Assembly (NCBI GenBank): GCA_044229845.1 | Contig: JBGASG010000002.1 | Location: 224,001-288,000 of the forward strand | DNA from: Candidatus Obscuribacteraceae bacterium | Lineage (GTDB): Bacteria > Cyanobacteriota > Vampirovibrionia > Obscuribacterales > Obscuribacteraceae | Length of the DNA stretch: 64,000 bases | Direction of reading: 5' to 3' | In this document: positions 44,554-54,176 of the stretch, piece after piece | Layout: each line of letters begins with the position of its first letter | Numbering within the stretch: position 1 is the stretch's first letter | The notes under the pieces: generated by a model | Database searches by the model: none | Told to the model about the DNA's origin: nothing | What the model saw: only the letters and a program-made list of their open reading frames with translations | Made by a program: the position numbers and the translations under genes

Positions 44554-46848
44554 TTACCTGCTCAGCGAAGCTTCGATCTTGGGCAGGTCTTTTTCGCGGT
44601 GTGTTTGCTTAAGCAATTGGCGATATAAATCGCGCAGGCGGACACGTTCCACTTCGTATTCCGCATCCTTTTTGTCCACGTTTTTCAGCATGCTCAGCGA
44701 CTCGCGGAAGTTGTCTTCGGCGAGCGCCGGTTTGCGGTTCTTGAGATAGAACTCGCCCAGCAAGGTGGTGCCGTAAACCGAAAACGCGTTCTTCGGACCG
44801 AAGCTCTTCAAAAATGCTTTCTTGGCGAAGTCAAAGTACTTCTCCGCTTCGGCGAAGTTGCCTTGCTCGTGGAGGAGCGCGGCGTAGTTATCGGCGACCC
44901 CGCCCATGTACGCAGGATTGTCGCGGTAGAGCATGATGGCTTTCTGATAGTGGTCGGCGGCATCGGCCGGGCGGCGTTCGCGCTTGGCGATGTCGCCGAG
45001 GGCTTGTTCCGCGATACCGGTGATGATGGCATCGGATTTATACGTCCGCTGCAGTGCCACCAGTTGTTCATAAACCTGTTTGCCGGTCAGGTCGTTGCCC
45101 TGTTTGACGAGCACGTCTCCGTATAACTTCAGGATGCGCGCTCTTTCGGCAGGCGCGATTTTGGTTTTCGGCAGCTGTTTCACCATCGCCGCCAGTATGT
45201 CTTCAGCGCCGCTGTTCAAGCCGCGTTTCGCCAGGTCTTGCGAATAGAGAAAACCCGGTGTATTCCAACTCGGATCAGCCGGTTTGTTGTCGATAATGGC
45301 AAGCAACGTGGTGGCAGCCTTGCGATCGTCGTGCTGGGTCACGGCTTCGCGGTATCGCTGCCAGTGCCCAGGCATATCGAAGGGAGCCAGTTTCCACGAG
45401 ATGAACGTGCCGACGGCACCGACCAGTGCTACGGAACCGGCGACAGCGACCAGGCATTTGACGTTGCGGACCGCGCTCTTCAGCGAGAACTTGCGCGGCA
45501 CCTTCTTGCGTTTCTTGCACTTGAGCAAATCTTTGAGCACTTCGTCGACGTTCTTGTAACGAGCGTTCAAGTCTTTGTGCAGACACTTGAGTGTGAGCTT
45601 CTCAAGTTTCTTGTTGAACTTGATTTGCAGCTGACCGAAAGTCTTCGGTGTTTCGGTCAGTCGCGCGCGCACCGTTTCAGTAAGGTTGTCACCGCATGTA
45701 GGCAGAGAGCCGGTGGCGGTTTCGTACATGACGCAGCCGAGGCTGAAGATGTCCGAGCGCTTATCGGCGGGACGCCCCATACATTGCTCGGGACTCATGT
45801 AGAAAGGCGTTCCATGCACATCGCCCATCTTGTTGAGATTGAGGTCGATGCCGGCGGTGTTATCCGTGGATTTCGAAATGCCGAAGTCGGCAAGTTTCAC
45901 CAACCAGGAACCGTCTTCTTTTTCGGCAATTAGAATATTGCTTGGTTTAACGTCGCGGTGCACGATGCCCGCGCGATGTCCTTCGCGCAATCCCAGGCAG
46001 ACCTGCTCGAACACTTCCACGAAGCGCTCGTCGCTAAGGGTGCCGTGCTGTTTGAGGATATCGGCGAGCGTGCGTCCCTCAACGAACTCCATGACGAGAA
46101 AGGGTGTGTCTTCGGCGACACCGGATTCGAATATGGTGACGATGTTGTCGCCTGTCAGTTTGCAGGCGCGTCGGGCTTCATCGAGAAACTTCTTAACCAG
46201 GCGACGCTCTTTGTCGCGGCGCGTATCGAACAACTTGACGGCGACCGGCTGGTCGCGCTTCTTGTGCACCGCCAGATATACAGACGTCATGCCGCTGCCG
46301 CCGATGACGCCAACCGGCGCATATACTTCGGACAACAACTCGGGGAACGGCAAAATATTGAAGCGCTGCACGGTGTCGCTGGCGGTGCCCTGCCACTGGC
46401 GCGCGTCAAAAGCGTGCTGGGCAAAAACATCGACGGGATCCAGTTCAGCTTCGGCGTCCGGATCGTCATTCCAGACTATGGTCTCGGTATATACAAGGTG
46501 ATCAACATCGGCTCGGCGCGCGGTTTCTGCTGCCAGCGCCGACGCCAGCGGAGCCACCGGCACTGCCGACAGAGCCGCGGTATCGAAGGCGATGGCGTCG
46601 TCATAGAGCACCGAATCGTCGCGAACTTCGGGATCGTCGGTGTCGTACGGATCTTGATAGACCAGCGTGTCTTCGAAGAACGCGCCGAACTCATCTTCGG
46701 TAGCCTTGGGATCAAAACCGAGATGGCGGCGAGCCTCCGTCGCGGGCGGGGGCTCGGTATTAGCAGCTTCGCTGGAAGCGGGCTCTGAAGATTCCTCCGA
46801 TACTAACGAAAGTTCAGCACCACGGACAGTATCGGGATCTTGAAACAA
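44554..46848 (-). CDS. Hanks-type Ser/Thr protein kinase with TM helix and C-terminal TPRs
   Basis: GSGMTSVY, VAVK, HRDVKPSN, DFG, GTPFYMSPEQC and DIFSLG motifs. Confidence 0.93.
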   Translation of the reverse strand: MFQDPDTVRGAELSLVSEESSEPASSEAANTEPPPATEARRHLGFDPKATEDEFGAFFEDTLVYQDPYDTDDPEVRDDSVLYDDAIAFDTAALSAVPVAPLASALAAETARRADVDHLVYTETIVWNDDPDAEAELDPVDVFAQHAFDARQWQGTASDTVQRFNILPFPELLSEVYAPVGVIGGSGMTSVYLAVHKKRDQPVAVKLFDTRRDKERRLVKKFLDEARRACKLTGDNIVTIFESGVAEDTPFLVMEFVEGRTLADILKQHGTLSDERFVEVFEQVCLGLREGHRAGIVHRDVKPSNILIAEKEDGSWLVKLADFGISKSTDNTAGIDLNLNKMGDVHGTPFYMSPEQCMGRPADKRSDIFSLGCVMYETATGSLPTCGDNLTETVRARLTETPKTFGQLQIKFNKKLEKLTLKCLHKDLNARYKNVDEVLKDLLKCKKRKKVPRKFSLKSAVRNVKCLVAVAGSVALVGAVGTFISWKLAPFDMPGHWQRYREAVTQHDDRKAATTLLAIIDNKPADPSWNTPGFLYSQDLAKRGLNSGAEDILAAMVKQLPKTKIAPAERARILKLYGDVLVKQGNDLTGKQVYEQLVALQRTYKSDAIITGIAEQALGDIAKRERRPADAADHYQKAIMLYRDNPAYMGGVADNYAALLHEQGNFAEAEKYFDFAKKAFLKSFGPKNAFSVYGTTLLGEFYLKNRKPALAEDNFRESLSMLKNVDKKDAEYEVERVRLRDLYRQLLKQTHREKDLPKIEASLSR

Positions 46849-46991
46849 CGCGATCTCTTCCTCGCTTCGGGTCGCTCGAGGTAATTGTAAGGGGTATTCG
46901 CTTCATCGTGCCTTAAAAGTGCGGAAAACCTGTCGAAAACTGCGAAGAAATTTTCGACGGTATATATCAGCGATATGGAAACGCGACTCTA

Positions 46992-49316
46992 TCAGGGACC
47001 AGACGCAGAGGCTTCCTTCGCTGGTGCATCCAATCCCGCGCGCGGGCTGGATGGTATTACTCCCAGTATCACGTCGTCGCCGTCCCAGTTTTTGATGATC
47101 ACCGGTGTCTGCAGCTTGGCGCGATCTCTGAGCACTTCTTCCTCGACCTTCTCGCGCAGATATGTGCAGGCATTGGACAGCGAAGTCTTGTCTCCCTGCT
47201 GGCGCAATCCTTCCAGCAAGCGGTAGGTGAAGACGCCGTTCTTGCTGGTGCGCGACTCCCACGACACCTGATCGGCGTCGCTGGATGCAATCAATACTTG
47301 CCCTTTGCCGAGCACCACGCCGTCGACATTGAACGGGCTGGCTGCCGCGGTGCGAGCCAGTCCCTTCTGCTCGTCGCTCTTCACGGCACCGGCATGGCAA
47401 ACATCCAGTACCAGCACGGTGCGATCGCAGTGCACCATTTTCTTGATGCTGCCGGTCAACCATTGCATGGGAATGCCCGAAAGTTCCAGGTTATCCATGG
47501 AGGTTTCGTAGGTGACAATCAGGTTGGAGCCCTTCGCCGTATCGGAAGGAGCGCTGCCATGGCTCGACATATATATCACGACGAGATCATCGGGTTTGGC
47601 CACGCGCCCCAGCCATCCGGTGCCGAGCGCATTGACGATGTTGTCGTGGGTGGCCTGTTCGTTGGTCAACAGTTTGACGTGGTCGGGCTGGAAGTGCGCC
47701 TCGCCGACCAGGTAATTGCGGAAGTCCGTGGCATCCTTGGCGGCATATTTGAGATTGAGTTCCGGGTCTTCGAACGAGCTGATACCGACAACGACCGCCC
47801 ACTTATCTTTGACCGGTCGATTGAGATCGGCGGACCGACCAATTTTGACCTGGGTGCCCGTGGTGTCCTCGGCGGTGGCAGAAGCGGTGGCGCTGGTGCC
47901 TGTGCCGGCGGCGGGGGCGGGGGCGGCGGATTTCTTCTCGGGCTCGACCAGCTTGCTGGAGCCGGGCAGCGCTTTCTTGATCACCAGTGACTGCCGCGAC
48001 AATTTGTCGGCTTCCGCTTGTTTGCCCTGGGCGGCGAGCACTCGCGAGAGGTTGTCGAGATCGGCGGCGATGGCTGGATCCGTGAAGCCGAGGCGCTCCT
48101 GATCTTTAGCCAGCACCTCGCGATACATAGACTCGGCGTCGATATAATTCTCGGTGGCGCGATAGGCGGCAGCCAGATCGTTCATCGATGAAACCAGACT
48201 GGAAGGCGCGATACCCGGAGTGTTCTGCTGTATCTTCAGCACGCGGTCGTAAATTAATTGCGCCTGGGCAAATTCCCGGCGGGTCCACGCGTGCTTGGCT
48301 TTGTTTCTCAACGGCACCACCATCGATGCATGATTCGGTCCGAACATGCCTTCAACCGTTTTCAAAACTCGGTCGTTGATCGCGTCAGCTTCGGCAACGT
48401 TGCTGCCCATGCCATCGTATTCGGTGACCAGGCAATTGAGGCTGTTCAGCGAAAACAATGTGTCGACGCCGTGCTCTTTCTCATTGATCGCCAGAGCACG
48501 CTTTGTAAGCGGCAACGCTTCGGCATACTTACCCTGTTCGATCAGCAATATCGCCAGGAAGTCCAGAAGCGGTCCGTTTTGATCGTTGTCGGCGCCGCGC
48601 GCTTTCTCATTGATAGCCAGAGCGTCTTTCAGAAGCTTGGTCGCTTCGGTGTATCTGATCTGCTCTTCATAGCGAATGCCGCGATGCAGCATGCACTGCA
48701 CTACTTTCACATCCGTGGGACCCAGTTTGGTTTCATAGATCTTCTGAGCGCGCAGGGAGGTGGTTTCGGCTTCCGCATATTTCTTTTGCTTGCCGTACAG
48801 ATCTGCCAGCGATGAAAGCATGCCGGCGACGGTGGTGCTGTCGCCACCCTCGGTTTTGGTAGCCATCCCGATCGCCTTGGTGAGGAGCGCTTCCGCCTCG
48901 GGATACTGGCGCTGCCCGCTATAAACTCCGGCCAGGCTGGCGACCACCATCGCCGCATTGACCGAGCCGGCGCCGTATTCTTTTTCGCAGACAGCCAGTT
49001 CCTTTTTGTAGTTGGCTTCGGCTTCGGCGTATTTGTTTTCTTGCAGCAAGACCAGCGACAGCATCTCCATGATCACGCAGCGCTGTCCAGCTTTCACCGT
49101 CGGTTCTTCTTCGGCCGACTTGAGCGCCGAGGTCAGAAGTTTTTCCGCTTCCTGATAGTTGCCCTTGCCGAAAGCCATCATGCCTTCCTTCATGAAGGTG
49201 TTCCACATCGCCTCCTGCGCGTGCGCGGCAGGCAAGTATGCGGAAGGCGGCGAGGGCGAAAACCAGGGCAGCGTCAGGGACATAGACAAAGCGGCAAGCA
49301 CAAAACGTCTGACCAT
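46992..49316 (-). CDS. Secreted TPR-repeat protein with C-terminal caspase-family (C14) domain
   Basis: Signal peptide, kinesin-light-chain-type TPRs, KWAVVVGI, MSSHGS, LDVCHAG and NGVFT motifs. Confidence 0.9.
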   Translation of the reverse strand: MVRRFVLAALSMSLTLPWFSPSPPSAYLPAAHAQEAMWNTFMKEGMMAFGKGNYQEAEKLLTSALKSAEEEPTVKAGQRCVIMEMLSLVLLQENKYAEAEANYKKELAVCEKEYGAGSVNAAMVVASLAGVYSGQRQYPEAEALLTKAIGMATKTEGGDSTTVAGMLSSLADLYGKQKKYAEAETTSLRAQKIYETKLGPTDVKVVQCMLHRGIRYEEQIRYTEATKLLKDALAINEKARGADNDQNGPLLDFLAILLIEQGKYAEALPLTKRALAINEKEHGVDTLFSLNSLNCLVTEYDGMGSNVAEADAINDRVLKTVEGMFGPNHASMVVPLRNKAKHAWTRREFAQAQLIYDRVLKIQQNTPGIAPSSLVSSMNDLAAAYRATENYIDAESMYREVLAKDQERLGFTDPAIAADLDNLSRVLAAQGKQAEADKLSRQSLVIKKALPGSSKLVEPEKKSAAPAPAAGTGTSATASATAEDTTGTQVKIGRSADLNRPVKDKWAVVVGISSFEDPELNLKYAAKDATDFRNYLVGEAHFQPDHVKLLTNEQATHDNIVNALGTGWLGRVAKPDDLVVIYMSSHGSAPSDTAKGSNLIVTYETSMDNLELSGIPMQWLTGSIKKMVHCDRTVLVLDVCHAGAVKSDEQKGLARTAAASPFNVDGVVLGKGQVLIASSDADQVSWESRTSKNGVFTYRLLEGLRQQGDKTSLSNACTYLREKVEEEVLRDRAKLQTPVIIKNWDGDDVILGVIPSSPRAGLDAPAKEASASGP

Positions 49317-49581: not shown

Positions 49582-50598
49582 ATGAATCTATTGATTCTTG
49601 GTGGCACAGTTTTCCTGGGGCGGCATCTGGTTTCGGCGGCGAGAGCGGCTGGTCACACAGTGACGACGTTCAATCGCGGAACCAACAAATTGCCCGAGCA
49701 GGCATCCGCCGACTTGGAAAAGGTAACCGGTGACCGCAATCAGAACGCCGACCTGGCTCGTCTTGCCGGCGCCGGCAAAACCTGGGATGCGGTCATCGAT
49801 ACATGCGGCTACACACCGCCTGCGGTGGCGGCATCGGCGACGGCTCTCAAGGACTGTGCCGGAAAGTATGTTTTCATCTCGAGCATTTCGGTATACCAGG
49901 ACTTTCGCCAGACCGGCATGGACGAAACCGCTCCGCTGCGCAAGAAACCCATTGACGGCGAGGACGATTACGGCTCACTAAAGGCTGCGTGCGAAACCGC
50001 AGTCAGCCGGGTCTACGGCGACAACGCTATCTGCGTGCGGGCCGGTTTGATAGTCGGTCCATTTGATTCGACAGATCGATTCACCTATTGGCCGGGACGG
50101 GTGGCGGCAGGCGGGAAGGTTCTGGCGCCGGGCAATCCGGATCGGCGGGTGCAGTTTATTGATGTTCGCGACCTGTCCGATTGGATTTTGCGGGTGGTGG
50201 CAAGTGAAGGTTCCGGAGCCTACAATGCCACCGGTCCGAACTTTCCCCTTTCTATGGATCACTTTCTGGATGAGTGCAAGGCGGCTACCGAAAGTGATGC
50301 GGAGTTTGTCTGGCTATCCGACGAAGAGCTGACCGCGGCCGGCGTCGAAGACTGGACGCAGCTGCCTCTCTGGCTGCCGGAATCGAATGAAGACTTTCGT
50401 GGTTTCATGAGCATCGACTGCACCAAGGCTCACGTTGCCGAATTGACCTATCGCCCGCTTGCCGATACCATCCGCGACACGCTCACCTGGGATCGCACCC
50501 GCGACGCCGCGCTGCAGCGCAAAGCCGGCTTGCCGCCGCAGCGCGAAACCGAACTCCTGACGGCCCATGCCGCCGCGGCGTCCGCTCAAATCTCCTGA
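49582..50598 (+). CDS. NAD-dependent epimerase/dehydratase family protein
   Basis: ILGGTVFLG, FNRG, ISSISVY, YGSLK and DRFTYW motifs. Confidence 0.9.
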   Translation: MNLLILGGTVFLGRHLVSAARAAGHTVTTFNRGTNKLPEQASADLEKVTGDRNQNADLARLAGAGKTWDAVIDTCGYTPPAVAASATALKDCAGKYVFISSISVYQDFRQTGMDETAPLRKKPIDGEDDYGSLKAACETAVSRVYGDNAICVRAGLIVGPFDSTDRFTYWPGRVAAGGKVLAPGNPDRRVQFIDVRDLSDWILRVVASEGSGAYNATGPNFPLSMDHFLDECKAATESDAEFVWLSDEELTAAGVEDWTQLPLWLPESNEDFRGFMSIDCTKAHVAELTYRPLADTIRDTLTWDRTRDAALQRKAGLPPQRETELLTAHAAAASAQIS

Positions 50599-51281
50599 TG
50601 ACTGGCGACCTTTCTATGAATGGCTTCGCTGTGCAGCACGCGGTGGTGGCGCCCGAGCAATTGACGTCGCTGTTGACACAAGTCGAACCGCTGCGCGCGC
50701 GCGGCGAATCAGAAGCGGGAATGCGCCTGCTGCTGCAACGTTCGGAGGCGGTGCGCCACTTCGCTTATTCAGATAAGCTTTCGTCCATGGCGCGAAGTGC
50801 ATTGGGCGAGGGAGTTCCAAAACCGGTCCGCGCGATACTGTTTGACAAGACGCCCAATTCTAACTGGTATGTAACCTGGCATCAGGATGTCACAATCGCG
50901 GTCAAGGAGCGCATTGATGTTCCCGGTTACGGACCGTGGTCCATCAAATCAGGTGTGCACCACGTGCAACCGCCGGCGGCGGTGCTACAAAATATGGTGG
51001 CACTGCGCATACATATAGATGATTCGCCCCTGGAGAACGGACCGATCAATTTCATCCCCGAGTCGCACCGGCTGGGCATTCTCGATCCGCAATCGATCGC
51101 CGAACTGCGCACACAACGCCAGTCTGTGTCCGTTCCAGCCGCGGCCGGCGACATCATTTTGATGAAACCGCTGATCCTGCACAGCTCACCTGTTTCTTCC
51201 AATCCCGCGCATCGCCGCGTTCTGCACATCGAGTACGCCGCATACGATCTGCCCGCCGGACTACAATGGACCGAGGCGTAA
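50598..51281 (+). CDS. Phytanoyl-CoA dioxygenase (PhyH) family Fe(II)/2OG protein
   Basis: FDKTP..NW.V.WHQD, LILHSS and RRVLHIEY motifs. Confidence 0.9.
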   Translation: MTGDLSMNGFAVQHAVVAPEQLTSLLTQVEPLRARGESEAGMRLLLQRSEAVRHFAYSDKLSSMARSALGEGVPKPVRAILFDKTPNSNWYVTWHQDVTIAVKERIDVPGYGPWSIKSGVHHVQPPAAVLQNMVALRIHIDDSPLENGPINFIPESHRLGILDPQSIAELRTQRQSVSVPAAAGDIILMKPLILHSSPVSSNPAHRRVLHIEYAAYDLPAGLQWTEA

Positions 51282-51323
51282 CGGCTGAGGAAAGCGACTG
51301 ACGCATAGCGACCGAGGCATAAA

Positions 51324-51872
51324 ATGGGACTGGACACCGTTGAACTGGTAATGGCTATCGAACAAGAATTCGGCATCGAGATTCCCGACCCAGATGCCGA
51401 ACGAATGATCACCGTAGGCGATGTGTACGAATACCTGAAGACCAGGTTGAAGAGCGAACCCGTCGAAGGCTGCCTACGCCAACGCATCTTCTATAAACTG
51501 CGTCGCGCCGTAATTGAGAACTACAACCTTCCCCGAGAGGCGTTGTCACCCGACACGTGTTTGAGCGAAATCATGTATTTCAAACATGTCGAGGAAGGGT
51601 GGCCGTTTCTTCAAATGTTCATCGACTTGAGGATTCCGCAATTTCAGTCGAGGGACGAATTTCTGGGCTGGCACGTTTCCGACAAGACGCTCAAGTTGCG
51701 CGACATTGTGGATCAGTTGGTTTCACTAAATAAGGATCAGCTGGGCGCGGCAGCAAACAGTGACGAATCAATTTGGCAACGCCTCGTCACTGTAACCGTC
51801 AATCAGTTGAACGTGACGCGCGACCAGGTGATACCATCCGCATCCTTCACCCGGGATCTCGGCGCAGATTAG
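51324..51872 (+). CDS. Circularly permuted acyl-carrier-protein-like protein lacking the Ppant serine
   Basis: Starts [22 protein letters not shown] (ACP helices II-IV) and ends ...[22 protein letters not shown] (ACP helix I and loop). Confidence 0.8.
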
Positions 51873-52179: not shown

Positions 52180-52851
52180 ATGAGCGCCAGCACACAACTG
52201 AGTGCGGAAACGATTGCCATGGCCGACGAGCTATGCGACATCGGCGCAACTTTCTATGGGAAGAACTGGTCGCTGGCGACCAGCAGCAACTATAGTTCCG
52301 TCGTCGCGCGACAACCGCTCGCGCTTCTGATGACAGCCAGCGGCATGCACAAAGGCAATCTGTCGCGTCGCGACTTCGTCATCGTTGACGATCAATGTCG
52401 AATCGTGTCGGCGCTTGATCGAGGCGCATCCACTGCACATCAAGCAAGCGCAGACGCGTTGAAGCCTTCCGCCGAAGCCGCCTTGCACGTGCAGATAGCG
52501 CGGCTCACCGGCGCCGGATCGATACTGCACACGCACTCGATGTTTGGCACACTGGTTTCGCAGAAGTTGGTGTCGGCAGGACAACTGAAGATACGCGGAC
52601 TCGAGATGCTCAAAGCCCTGCCTGGAATCACAACGCACGACACGGAAATCGCGGTGCCGATCTTCGAAAATACGCAGGACATCAAGGGACTCGCGGATCG
52701 ACTGACGAAGGAAACACTCACCGCGTCCTCAGGATTTCTCATTGCCGGGCACGGGCTGTACACGTGGGGCACCACCATTCAGGATGCGCGTCGGCATGTC
52801 GAGGCGCTCGAGTTCTTGATTGAGTATGTCTGGCATCGGGGAGAGTTTTGA
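52180..52851 (+). CDS. mtnB: Methylthioribulose-1-phosphate dehydratase
   Basis: ATSSNYS, TASG..KG, KPSAE..LH, LHTHS and GHGLYTWG motifs; operon context. Confidence 0.9.
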   Translation: MSASTQLSAETIAMADELCDIGATFYGKNWSLATSSNYSSVVARQPLALLMTASGMHKGNLSRRDFVIVDDQCRIVSALDRGASTAHQASADALKPSAEAALHVQIARLTGAGSILHTHSMFGTLVSQKLVSAGQLKIRGLEMLKALPGITTHDTEIAVPIFENTQDIKGLADRLTKETLTASSGFLIAGHGLYTWGTTIQDARRHVEALEFLIEYVWHRGEF

Positions 52852-52852
52852 A

Positions 52853-53434
52853 GTGGCGCGCGTACATATTCCTGCATCCGCAATGACGATTGAAGACAGC
52901 GAAGCAATCGCGGAATTCCTGGCGCCGCATCACATCACATACGAGTTCTGGCCTGTAGCGGGGCGACTGACTGATGGTGCCACAGATGCGCAAATACTCG
53001 ACGAGTACGCATCCGAAATCGAAACTTTGAAGAAACGCGGCGGCTACGTCACAGCCGACGTCATCAACGTGACACCAGAAACACCCGGTCTGGACGCCAT
53101 GCTCGATAAGTTCAACAAAGAGCACACGCACAGTGAAGACGAGGTTCGCTTCGTGGTGGCCGGTTCAGGCATTTTCCACATTCACAGCGGCACAGACGGG
53201 ACTGTCTTCTCCATTGAAATGATGTCCGGCGATTTGATCAACGTTCCGGCCGGCACGCGTCACTGGTTTAACCTCTGCAAAGAAAAAGCCATCAAGACAA
53301 TCCGCCTGTTTCAGGAGACAACTGGCTGGAGTCCTCAATATGTCGACGCACCGGTGCACGGAAGCTACGAACCGCTGTGTTTCGGTCCAACCTACTCGCC
53401 AATCCGGCGCGCCTCATCGGTGATCAATCCCTGA
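52853..53434 (+). CDS. mtnD: Acireductone dioxygenase (cupin)
   Basis: GYVTADVI, EHTHSEDEVRF, VPAGTRHWF and IRLF motifs. Confidence 0.92.
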   Translation: MARVHIPASAMTIEDSEAIAEFLAPHHITYEFWPVAGRLTDGATDAQILDEYASEIETLKKRGGYVTADVINVTPETPGLDAMLDKFNKEHTHSEDEVRFVVAGSGIFHIHSGTDGTVFSIEMMSGDLINVPAGTRHWFNLCKEKAIKTIRLFQETTGWSPQYVDAPVHGSYEPLCFGPTYSPIRRASSVINP

Positions 53435-53435
53435 A

Positions 53436-54176
53436 ATGCTACACTTCGCGGTTGACTTAGTTCTGCTCGACATAGAAGGCACAACGTCGCCTGTAGACTT
53501 TGTCTACCGCATTCTGTTTCCGTTCGCGCGCAAGCGGATGGACGAGTTCCTGCGCGCAACTCGCAACGAGCCGACAACTCGCGACGCCTGCAAACAGCTA
53601 GCGCGCGACATAGATCGCGTCGACCTCGTTGAACAAATCGACTCATCTATCGATCAGGCGTTGCCGGAACTAACCAAAGAAGCACTGGCGCTCATGGACG
53701 TAGATTCCAAAACAACCGGGCTGAAGGAAATTCAGGGTCTAATCTGGAAGCAAGGCTACACGTCCGGCGCATTGCGTTCGCAACTATTTTCAGATGTGCC
53801 ATCCGCATTGCAGAGATGGACTGATGACGGACTGAAGGTAGCCATCTACTCCTCAGGCAGCAGCACCGCACAAGAGGTCTTCTTCCAACACACTGAATTT
53901 GGAGACCTGACGAAGTTCCTGGTCGGCTTTTACGACACCACATTTGGTGCCAAGCGTGAAACAGAGAGCTACAAAGCCATAGCCCGTCACCTGCAAATCG
54001 ACACAGAACACATCCTCTTCGTCAGCGACGTAGGCGCGGAACTGCAGGCAGCCAGGCAAAGCGGCATGTCCACAGTCCTTTGCATCCGCTCAGGCTACAA
54101 ACCAAGTGAAGGCGATGACCAATTCGCTCCTGTCAACTCGTTCGATGAAATGCGAATTCGCAAAGTCACCACCTGA
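53436..54176 (+). CDS. mtnC: Enolase-phosphatase E1 (acireductone synthase)
   Basis: LDIEGTT, LFPFA, D.K.TGLK.IQGLIW..GY, IYSSGS and ILFVSD motifs. Confidence 0.92.
   Translation: MLHFAVDLVLLDIEGTTSPVDFVYRILFPFARKRMDEFLRATRNEPTTRDACKQLARDIDRVDLVEQIDSSIDQALPELTKEALALMDVDSKTTGLKEIQGLIWKQGYTSGALRSQLFSDVPSALQRWTDDGLKVAIYSSGSSTAQEVFFQHTEFGDLTKFLVGFYDTTFGAKRETESYKAIARHLQIDTEHILFVSDVGAELQAARQSGMSTVLCIRSGYKPSEGDDQFAPVNSFDEMRIRKVTT

Follow-up and report, generated by a model that had tools for sequence, protein, structure and literature searches.

We analysed a window of 64,000 nucleotides from a Candidatus Obscuribacteraceae bacterium (GenBank assembly GCA_044229845.1, contig JBGASG010000002.1). Within it, a gene for an unusual acyl carrier protein (ACP) follows genes for an NAD-dependent epimerase/dehydratase and a PhyH-family Fe/2-oxoglutarate dioxygenase (Table 1), whose H-Q-D motif we take to be of the hydroxylase type. 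The 3' end of the PhyH gene is repeated ahead of the ACP gene, and a GAGG inside this repeat, 6 nt 5' of the ATG, is from its sequence the likely ribosome-binding site. Promoter and terminator scans around the gene gave results at chance level, and RNA support amounts to two short fragments from one metatranscriptome, too few to show transcription. DNA of the gene is present in sequencing runs other than those marked as the source; in one DNA run (X17), a contig joins 51300 to 51795 and skips most of the gene, which may represent a strain whose allele differs or is deleted. At 52180-54176, genes for a class II aldolase, an ARD and a HAD hydrolase stand in a row, consistent with methionine-salvage mtnB-mtnD-mtnC. 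Divergently upstream, the minus strand encodes TPR-caspase (Peptidase_C14) and Ser/Thr kinase-TPR proteins (44554-49316), which showed no tie to the ACP gene at other loci.

Table 1. Features at the permuted ACP locus, in window coordinates
Feature	Position	Strand	Basis
NAD-dependent epimerase/dehydratase, local neighbor only	49582..50598	+	family match
PhyH-family Fe/2-oxoglutarate dioxygenase, H-Q-D motif	50598..51281	+	family match
13-nt repeat of PhyH 3' end	51310..51322 (copy 51269-51281)	+	sequence
Permuted ACP gene, 182 aa	51324..51872	+	ORF translation, TIGR00517 and PDB ACP matches
N-half, residues 2-42: ACP helices II-IV, Gly2 at Ser position	51327..51449	+	
Middle, residues 47-141: predicted degenerate ACP fold without conserved Ser	51462..51746	+	
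Low-confidence hairpin with hydrophobic tip FLGW, within middle	51642..51683	+	
C-half, residues 147-182: ACP helix I and loop I, last residue precedes Ser position	51762..51869	+	

The initial annotation described this protein as an ACP circularly permuted exactly at the serine that carries phosphopantetheine (Ppant), and comparison with ACPs of known structure bears this out. In phmmer alignments to PDB sequences, residues 3-42 match positions 36-75 of 2ehs and residues 150-182 match positions 2-34, leaving Ser35 alone unaligned (the corresponding ranges in 8jfn are 39-75 and 4-37). Because the 2ehs alignment omits only the serine, Gly2 occupies the Ser position and Asp182 corresponds to the residue just before it. 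The NCBIfam model TIGR00517 likewise matches the protein in two stretches (E 3e-21). The Ser of the D-S-L motif at the start of helix II is absent, Gly2 standing in its place, no conserved Ser occurs in the middle, and helix I does not come before helix II in the chain. With the chain both starting and ending at the Ser position, the usual cofactor attachment site is therefore missing; Met1 is presumably removed, leaving Gly as the N terminus. Three acidic residues of the recognition helix (D4, E7 and E13) are nearly invariant among permuted ACPs.

The source genome also encodes an ordinary AcpP (PF00550, TIGR00517) on the same contig, clustered with fab-like genes (named from sequence), and an AcpS. 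Taken together, the halves of the permuted protein share ~58% identity with this AcpP; they have the same predicted helices and keep its recognition-helix residues. They differ from it in that their order is swapped, the backbone is open between positions 35 and 36, and Gly replaces Ser; in addition, a second ACP fold is inserted, and the gene lies outside the fab cluster, evolves fast and is patchily distributed. About 47 kb from the permuted ACP gene, a PKS dehydratase domain is fused to an Sfp-type phosphopantetheinyl transferase (L307:1459-3333).

AF2 modeling predicted a four-helix ACP bundle, with a mean pLDDT of 82 for the full protein (from 150 sequences), an equal value for the minimal form and a confidently ordered C-terminal loop (pLDDT 94-95 over residues 151-180). 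The model of the full protein contains isolated single-residue bridges at residues 30, 79, 124 and 174. Because 79 and 124 both sit in the middle domain, 30 most likely pairs with 174 in the model, a bridge that would join the two ends of the permuted ACP; the same end-joining bridge appears in the folded model of the minimal form. This predicted pattern, along with the natural occurrence of insert-free forms of 81-95 aa, lends indirect support to the earlier proposal that the two halves form one bundle. The best structural match to the minimal-form model is middling (Z 6.0), with HAD cap domains tied with carrier proteins, so the minimal model alone does not prove an ACP fold.

The region between the halves had been read as a degenerate ACP repeat, and structural and profile comparisons agree. 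Residues 47-141 of the model superpose on ACPs with a middling best Z of 6.8 (rmsd 2.9, 83 aligned), and carrier proteins, comprising ACPs and peptidyl carrier proteins, make up nearly all of the top 45 rows. Searching the PDB with Foldseek yielded nothing at E 0.001, though ACPs were among the top rows. A profile of the middle aligns colinearly and in normal order with 39 host ACPs (91% probability), and with its own protein's halves at 94.9% and 77%; resemblance to both would fit a minimal permuted gene that was duplicated in frame. Conserved residues of this domain are C50, F56, Y57, R60, W93 and P105. Cys50 was considered as a substitute thiol and rejected, as it is absent from minimal forms and, on the ACP geometry that we assume, lies at the far end from the junction. 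Tandem ACPs such as the mupirocin and prodigiosin doublets also carry two ACP folds per chain by duplication, but these are colinear and keep their Ser, whereas the folds of the permuted ACP are nested and Ser-less.

Relatives numbered 147 in one search and 936, ordinary ACPs included, in another at E 1e-10; removal of 3 ordinary tandem ACPs from a collected set of 279 proteins left 276. The fixed MGLD start and DLGxD stop that had been anticipated from the single sequence are constant in most of the homologs surveyed. The start codon directly precedes Gly in 253 of 276 proteins, a count obtained from searches that favor query-like ends; in the remainder it precedes Ser (5) or another residue (2), there is no start at the Gly position (6, of which 4 are PhyH fusions), or the N-half is missing (10). 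Under the same search preference, the stop falls exactly at ACP position 35 in 213 of the 223 C termini scored, and the 53 unscored ones were by eye in the same register (34), slightly short (3) or fragments and odd ends (16). Of the 16 members that a genome-wide profile search retrieved, 6 carry ends that are shifted or decayed; in the other 10 the ends are exact or nearly so. The final residue is not fixed, being D in 147 proteins, G in 21, N in 16, C in 10, E in 7, S in 7 and another residue in 5, and apparent MGGGxM starts are in-frame ATGs within the PhyH 3' end.

Family members fall into size classes of 81-105 aa, 170-205 aa (78 of 80 without a membrane helix) and 210-260 aa, where 130 of 161 have two predicted membrane helices in the middle region. 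Within these classes, insert-free forms measure 81-95 aa, and the longer ones about 182-197 aa or, with the two membrane helices, about 230 aa. Double-insert forms occur too; a search for longer forms returned only these and one unrelated ACP fusion, which is weak evidence. The ESM Atlas holds several look-alike clusters of 79-213 members each. Divergent relatives at L330, L331 and L116:4800-5324 apparently have another permutation point or a C-terminal membrane helix. Estimates of dN/dS lie between 0.09 and 0.18 across all three regions of the protein, indicating purifying selection. Pairwise identity of the halves is 0.57-0.78, against 0.94-1.0 for AcpP, and their dN/dS is 0.09-0.17; by these measures the halves evolve far faster than AcpP and are still under purifying selection.

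The gene is widespread but patchy over several phyla. Full-length matches were found in the source genome and 9 of 30 others of Obscuribacteraceae, two genomes of this family hold broken stubs, and no match at that level was found in 120 other genomes of the class. Draws centered on Planctomycetota and Bacteroidota contained the gene in at least 10 and at least 6 of 301 genomes, respectively, seeds included; both counts are lower bounds because nine candidates were scored per genome. In a Pseudomonadota-centered draw, a minimal-form profile matched 1 of 401 genomes. The closest named relatives belong to Obscuribacterales, and intact cassettes with the gene occur in cultured isolates; Winogradskyella haliclonae (L021) is one cultured carrier. 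For several loci (L056, L058, L066, L080 and L011), record titles conflict with the host ACP type and the middle-domain tree; records titled Flavobacteriaceae, for example, carry an ACP of alphaproteobacterial type, and labels or bins may be wrong. Full-text searches of the openly accessible literature, judged by title or abstract, found no paper on the family.

The placement of the gene after epimerase and PhyH genes on the same strand, pointed out in the initial annotation, holds in the window but does not generalize: the epimerase does not recur over 80 GTDB loci, and PhyH is a neighbor only in Obscuribacterales. In 8 of 10 carrier genomes of Obscuribacteraceae, PhyH either precedes the permuted ACP or is fused to it, and over the 80 loci PhyH is the sole neighbor tied to the gene, the five loci concerned being from Obscuribacterales; none of the loci from other phyla has it. 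A conserved operon was accordingly rejected, as there is no common neighbor apart from PhyH. Conversely, eight family genomes have PhyH without an intact permuted ACP, and two of these keep only a broken fused stub (at L288 and L290, a broken stub is all that remains after PhyH). The PhyH fusions (L121, L123, L125, L164, L223; P0121, P0028 and P0025) all have a W-x-E-x-S-G-L-D junction whose Ser codons are of both AGY and TCT types. All eight intact fusions combine the Ser-Gly-Leu-Asp junction with a C-terminal Cys, which 3 of 66 free forms have; the fusions trace to one or two events, so this link is not statistically independent. Neighbors elsewhere are mixed and include GNATs, beta-lactamase-fold proteins, ParE, HEPN, restriction-type nucleases and many proteins without known function.

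Every carrier genome searched also has a canonical AcpP (50 of 50, in sets of 21, 18 and 11), and the permuted halves track it. Across 36 genomes grouped by host ACP type into 8 lineages, with L066 and two frameshifted or partial loci excluded, the excess similarity of the halves to the AcpP of their own lineage was reached by 35 of 40320 label permutations (p ~0.001); in an ungapped variant with 35 genomes, 15 of 40320 did so. A replication kept 8 of 11 new genomes, the host ACPs of the other 3 having been missed by the search pattern, and yielded p 0.035; in helix II it showed local matches, IAE and EDAF among them. Residues shared with the host protein include THFIxDLN in Phycisphaerae, HLNVE/MAFEE in the alphaproteobacterial type, SFTNDLG in Bacteroidota and QLNV..ASFT(K/R)DLG in Obscuribacterales. 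The signal is strong in Obscuribacterales, Phycisphaerae and Planctomycetia, weak in Bacteroidota and near zero in three small groups; 18 of 36 proteins pick their own lineage, where chance would give about 1 in 8. It rests on about four lineages, each a single clade, and because the groups in the middle-domain tree largely follow host lineage, few events are independent. We rejected recent gene conversion from acpP because identity at third positions is 0.49 to the acpP of the own genome versus 0.46 to those of same-lineage genomes. Ancient gene conversion, or halves that were replaced more than once, would give the same tracking, which fits a foreign and a host target alike.

Often the permuted ACP gene forms a single-gene integron cassette, and it is autonomous and mobile. 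Complementary integron core sites surround 22 of 103 permuted ACP genes, compared with 1.03 in shuffles, and at L175 a minimal form lies in an array with repeats behind an integron-type integrase. In Flavobacteriaceae the gene sits in arrays of small co-directional genes split by repeats, flanked by GTTGTAAAAC on the 5' side of the gene and GTTTTACAAC 3' of the stop. L021 and other Flavobacteriaceae loci form long integron-like arrays with ~160-nt repeats and mostly genes without a Pfam family. Cassette core sites (GTT... before the gene, ...AAC after the stop) are absent around the window copy, and a search of the source genome found tyrosine recombinases (best 39% over part of the query) and no clear integron integrase. 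Integron cassettes are rich in defense genes according to one preprint (bioRxiv 10.1101/2024.07.02.601686); ACPs are not mentioned in the main text of the two integron defense preprints that we consulted.

Scanned neighbors of the permuted ACP, many of which have no family, include no cognate toxin, and the sole immunity-like match, to SMI1_KNR4, is below the cut-off (E 0.0056); orphan immunity genes, however, would have no toxin partner beside them. PADLOC 2.0 with its 2023 library returned no match for 7 of 8 proteins and a weak DruH3 match for the other (E 0.014). Among viral contigs and phage genomes, the permuted form was not found in the 21 loci translated, out of 34, or in one phage gene; the ACPs there are ordinary and contain Ser. 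Many of the viral contigs L081-L114 encode such Ser-containing ACPs, and a Vibrio phage gene (L115:2884-3447) fuses an intact ACP to a domain of unknown kind.

A parallel family is the uncharacterized DUF1493 (PF07377), which, like the permuted ACP, is an ACP homolog with Gly at the Ser position (6 of 7 sequences; hhalign against ACP, 94.9%). The two also share a hydrophobic insert between helices II and IV and a place in variable small-gene arrays; DUF1493 proteins differ in that they are not permuted, have lost the LDTVEL helix and are found next to toxin-type genes. None of 18 permuted sequences (the middle domain and 17 relatives) matched PF07377 at E up to 1, the whole window protein gave no match at 0.1, and the middle domain aligned weakly with the DUF1493 profile (7.6%). 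The source genome likewise gave no DUF1493 match, in a search whose control also stayed silent. In one relative, a DUF1493 gene lies beside PhyH (L294:689-1111, minus strand). Rhs/MafI, STM2901-family or Tae4 genes adjoin DUF1493 in three of six plasmid regions (L309-L314): in one it comes after a MafI immunity gene downstream of an RHS gene, in another it overlaps an STM2901-family gene, and in a third it follows Tae4. A fourth copy belongs to an array of small genes without known function, and the remaining two regions are unremarkable, one of them with a weak STM2901-like remnant upstream (E 3e-4). These neighbors suggest that Ser-less ACPs may serve in conflict, and DUF1493 may be an unrecognized family of ACP-mimic immunity proteins; PMC6118388 and PMC12413039 list it in a table or mention it briefly. 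By its sequence, then, the permuted ACP would be classed as a known fold that falls outside the ACPs in its missing Ser and its chain order, and as distinct from DUF1493.

We favor, at about even confidence, the interpretation that the permuted ACP is a stand-alone, unmodifiable decoy of host AcpP directed against a foreign ACP-recognizing protein. By prediction, the two ends come together as a single ACP bundle and the middle folds as a second ACP; the decoy would then bind and neutralize a competitor toxin or phage enzyme. The inserted hairpin or helices could hold it at the inner membrane, and with the break the Asp35-Ser36 site would offer no target for modification or cleavage. An ACP can engage a partner without its cofactor, as apo-AcpP stimulates MukB (PMC8602292). 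The sequences themselves establish the permutation, the lost Ser, the fixed termini, the acidic recognition helix, the likeness to host AcpP, single-gene mobility and purifying selection. Support for the decoy comes from host tracking, the normal AcpP in every carrier genome searched, the fast divergence of the halves under purifying selection, autonomy and mobility, and the DUF1493 parallel. Its counter-points are that no cognate toxin lies among the neighbors scanned, tracking is uneven and the window copy has no cassette core sites. Small autonomous cassette genes and mimicry of a host molecule are shared with target-mimic proteins and integron defense cassettes. DNA mimics such as Qnr or Ocr offer an analogy, and our literature searches found no ACP mimic of comparable kind. 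Between the two functions first proposed, an unmodifiable mimic or a carrier that uses its free termini, the mimic is backed by host-AcpP tracking, cassette mobility and the DUF1493 parallel. The carrier is the less probable of the two, with the N-terminal PhyH fusions and the variable last residue speaking against it.

A point change of Ser would suffice for a decoy, so plain mimicry leaves the exact break unexplained. As a minority possibility, we entertain that the open Asp35/Gly36 junction is itself the working site, whether as a host-matched, pre-cut trap, as a place of terminal acyl or Ppant attachment, or through head-to-tail closure. An enzyme trapped in this way would be one that cleaves or modifies ACP at the serine, and in the PhyH fusions the C-terminal Cys, next to the Ser-Gly bond, might free the amine.

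The break could also be a chemical site, with the free Gly amine and the C-terminal carboxyl, or a Cys at the former Ser position, being acylated, N-phosphopantetheinylated or joined head-to-tail, a proposal that we consider unlikely; the protein would then be a carrier of a novel type or would trap a partner covalently. The exactness of both ends in most members speaks for it, as do the greater complexity of permutation as a route than Ser substitution and the junction and terminal Cys of all eight intact PhyH fusions. Yet the last residue is variable, the amine is blocked in the fusions, which themselves stem from one or two events, and neither a ligase nor an acyltransferase accompanies the gene. 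The ends are shifted or decayed in 6 of the 16 members found by profile, and a pocket position that has Ala in 7 of 8 host lineages has L, V, M, I, T or F in the permuted ACP.

We regard it as unlikely that the target is instead the host's own ACP enzymes (AcpS, Fab, Pls or Lpx), which the protein would regulate or inhibit as a dead end, perhaps serving as an effector that arrests growth upon infection. Apo-ACP is toxic in E. coli, which counts for such a role. Tracking suits a host partner equally well, the acidic recognition-helix residues are retained, and the membrane helices of most long forms would sit near membrane acyltransferases. Against this, the single-gene cassettes come with no antitoxin or sensor, and the patchy distribution and frequent loss (presence in 9 of 30 family genomes, stubs in 2) are ill-suited to a housekeeping regulator.

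We attach little credence to a role as a dedicated carrier or scaffold for the neighboring PhyH in a small pathway. The association within the family, and the persistence of fusions across divergent sequences, would favor it, but PhyH is not a neighbor in other phyla, occurs in family genomes without an intact permuted ACP and would find no Ser to tether its substrate. Carrier-dependent Fe/2OG systems of the SyrB2 type act on a Ppant-tethered substrate, whereas the permuted ACP has no Ser to carry one. Finally, despite the minimal RNA support and some decayed copies, the gene is hardly a functionless remnant of tandem ACP duplication, nor an artifact of assembly or annotation, given its dN/dS, hundreds of intact fixed-end relatives, intact cassettes in isolates and the presence of its DNA in runs other than those marked as the source.

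Fatty-acid, lipid A, lipoate and polyketide synthesis all have ACP as their hub. A permuted form of this protein that occurs in nature, is opened precisely where ACP is modified, is matched to its host, is borne on cassettes and is spread over several phyla implies some ACP-recognizing factor worth decoying or inhibiting, which could be a novel ACP-directed toxin, a phage protein or an antibacterial mechanism. The 86-aa forms are ready baits for that factor and a natural engineering scaffold with free termini at the carrier site. Members of the family are now annotated as "acyl carrier protein" or "hypothetical protein," and so the annotation misleads; the permuted ACP also suggests a function for DUF1493. 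If the open junction were indeed the working site, the family would reveal both a hidden attack on ACP and a new carrier chemistry.
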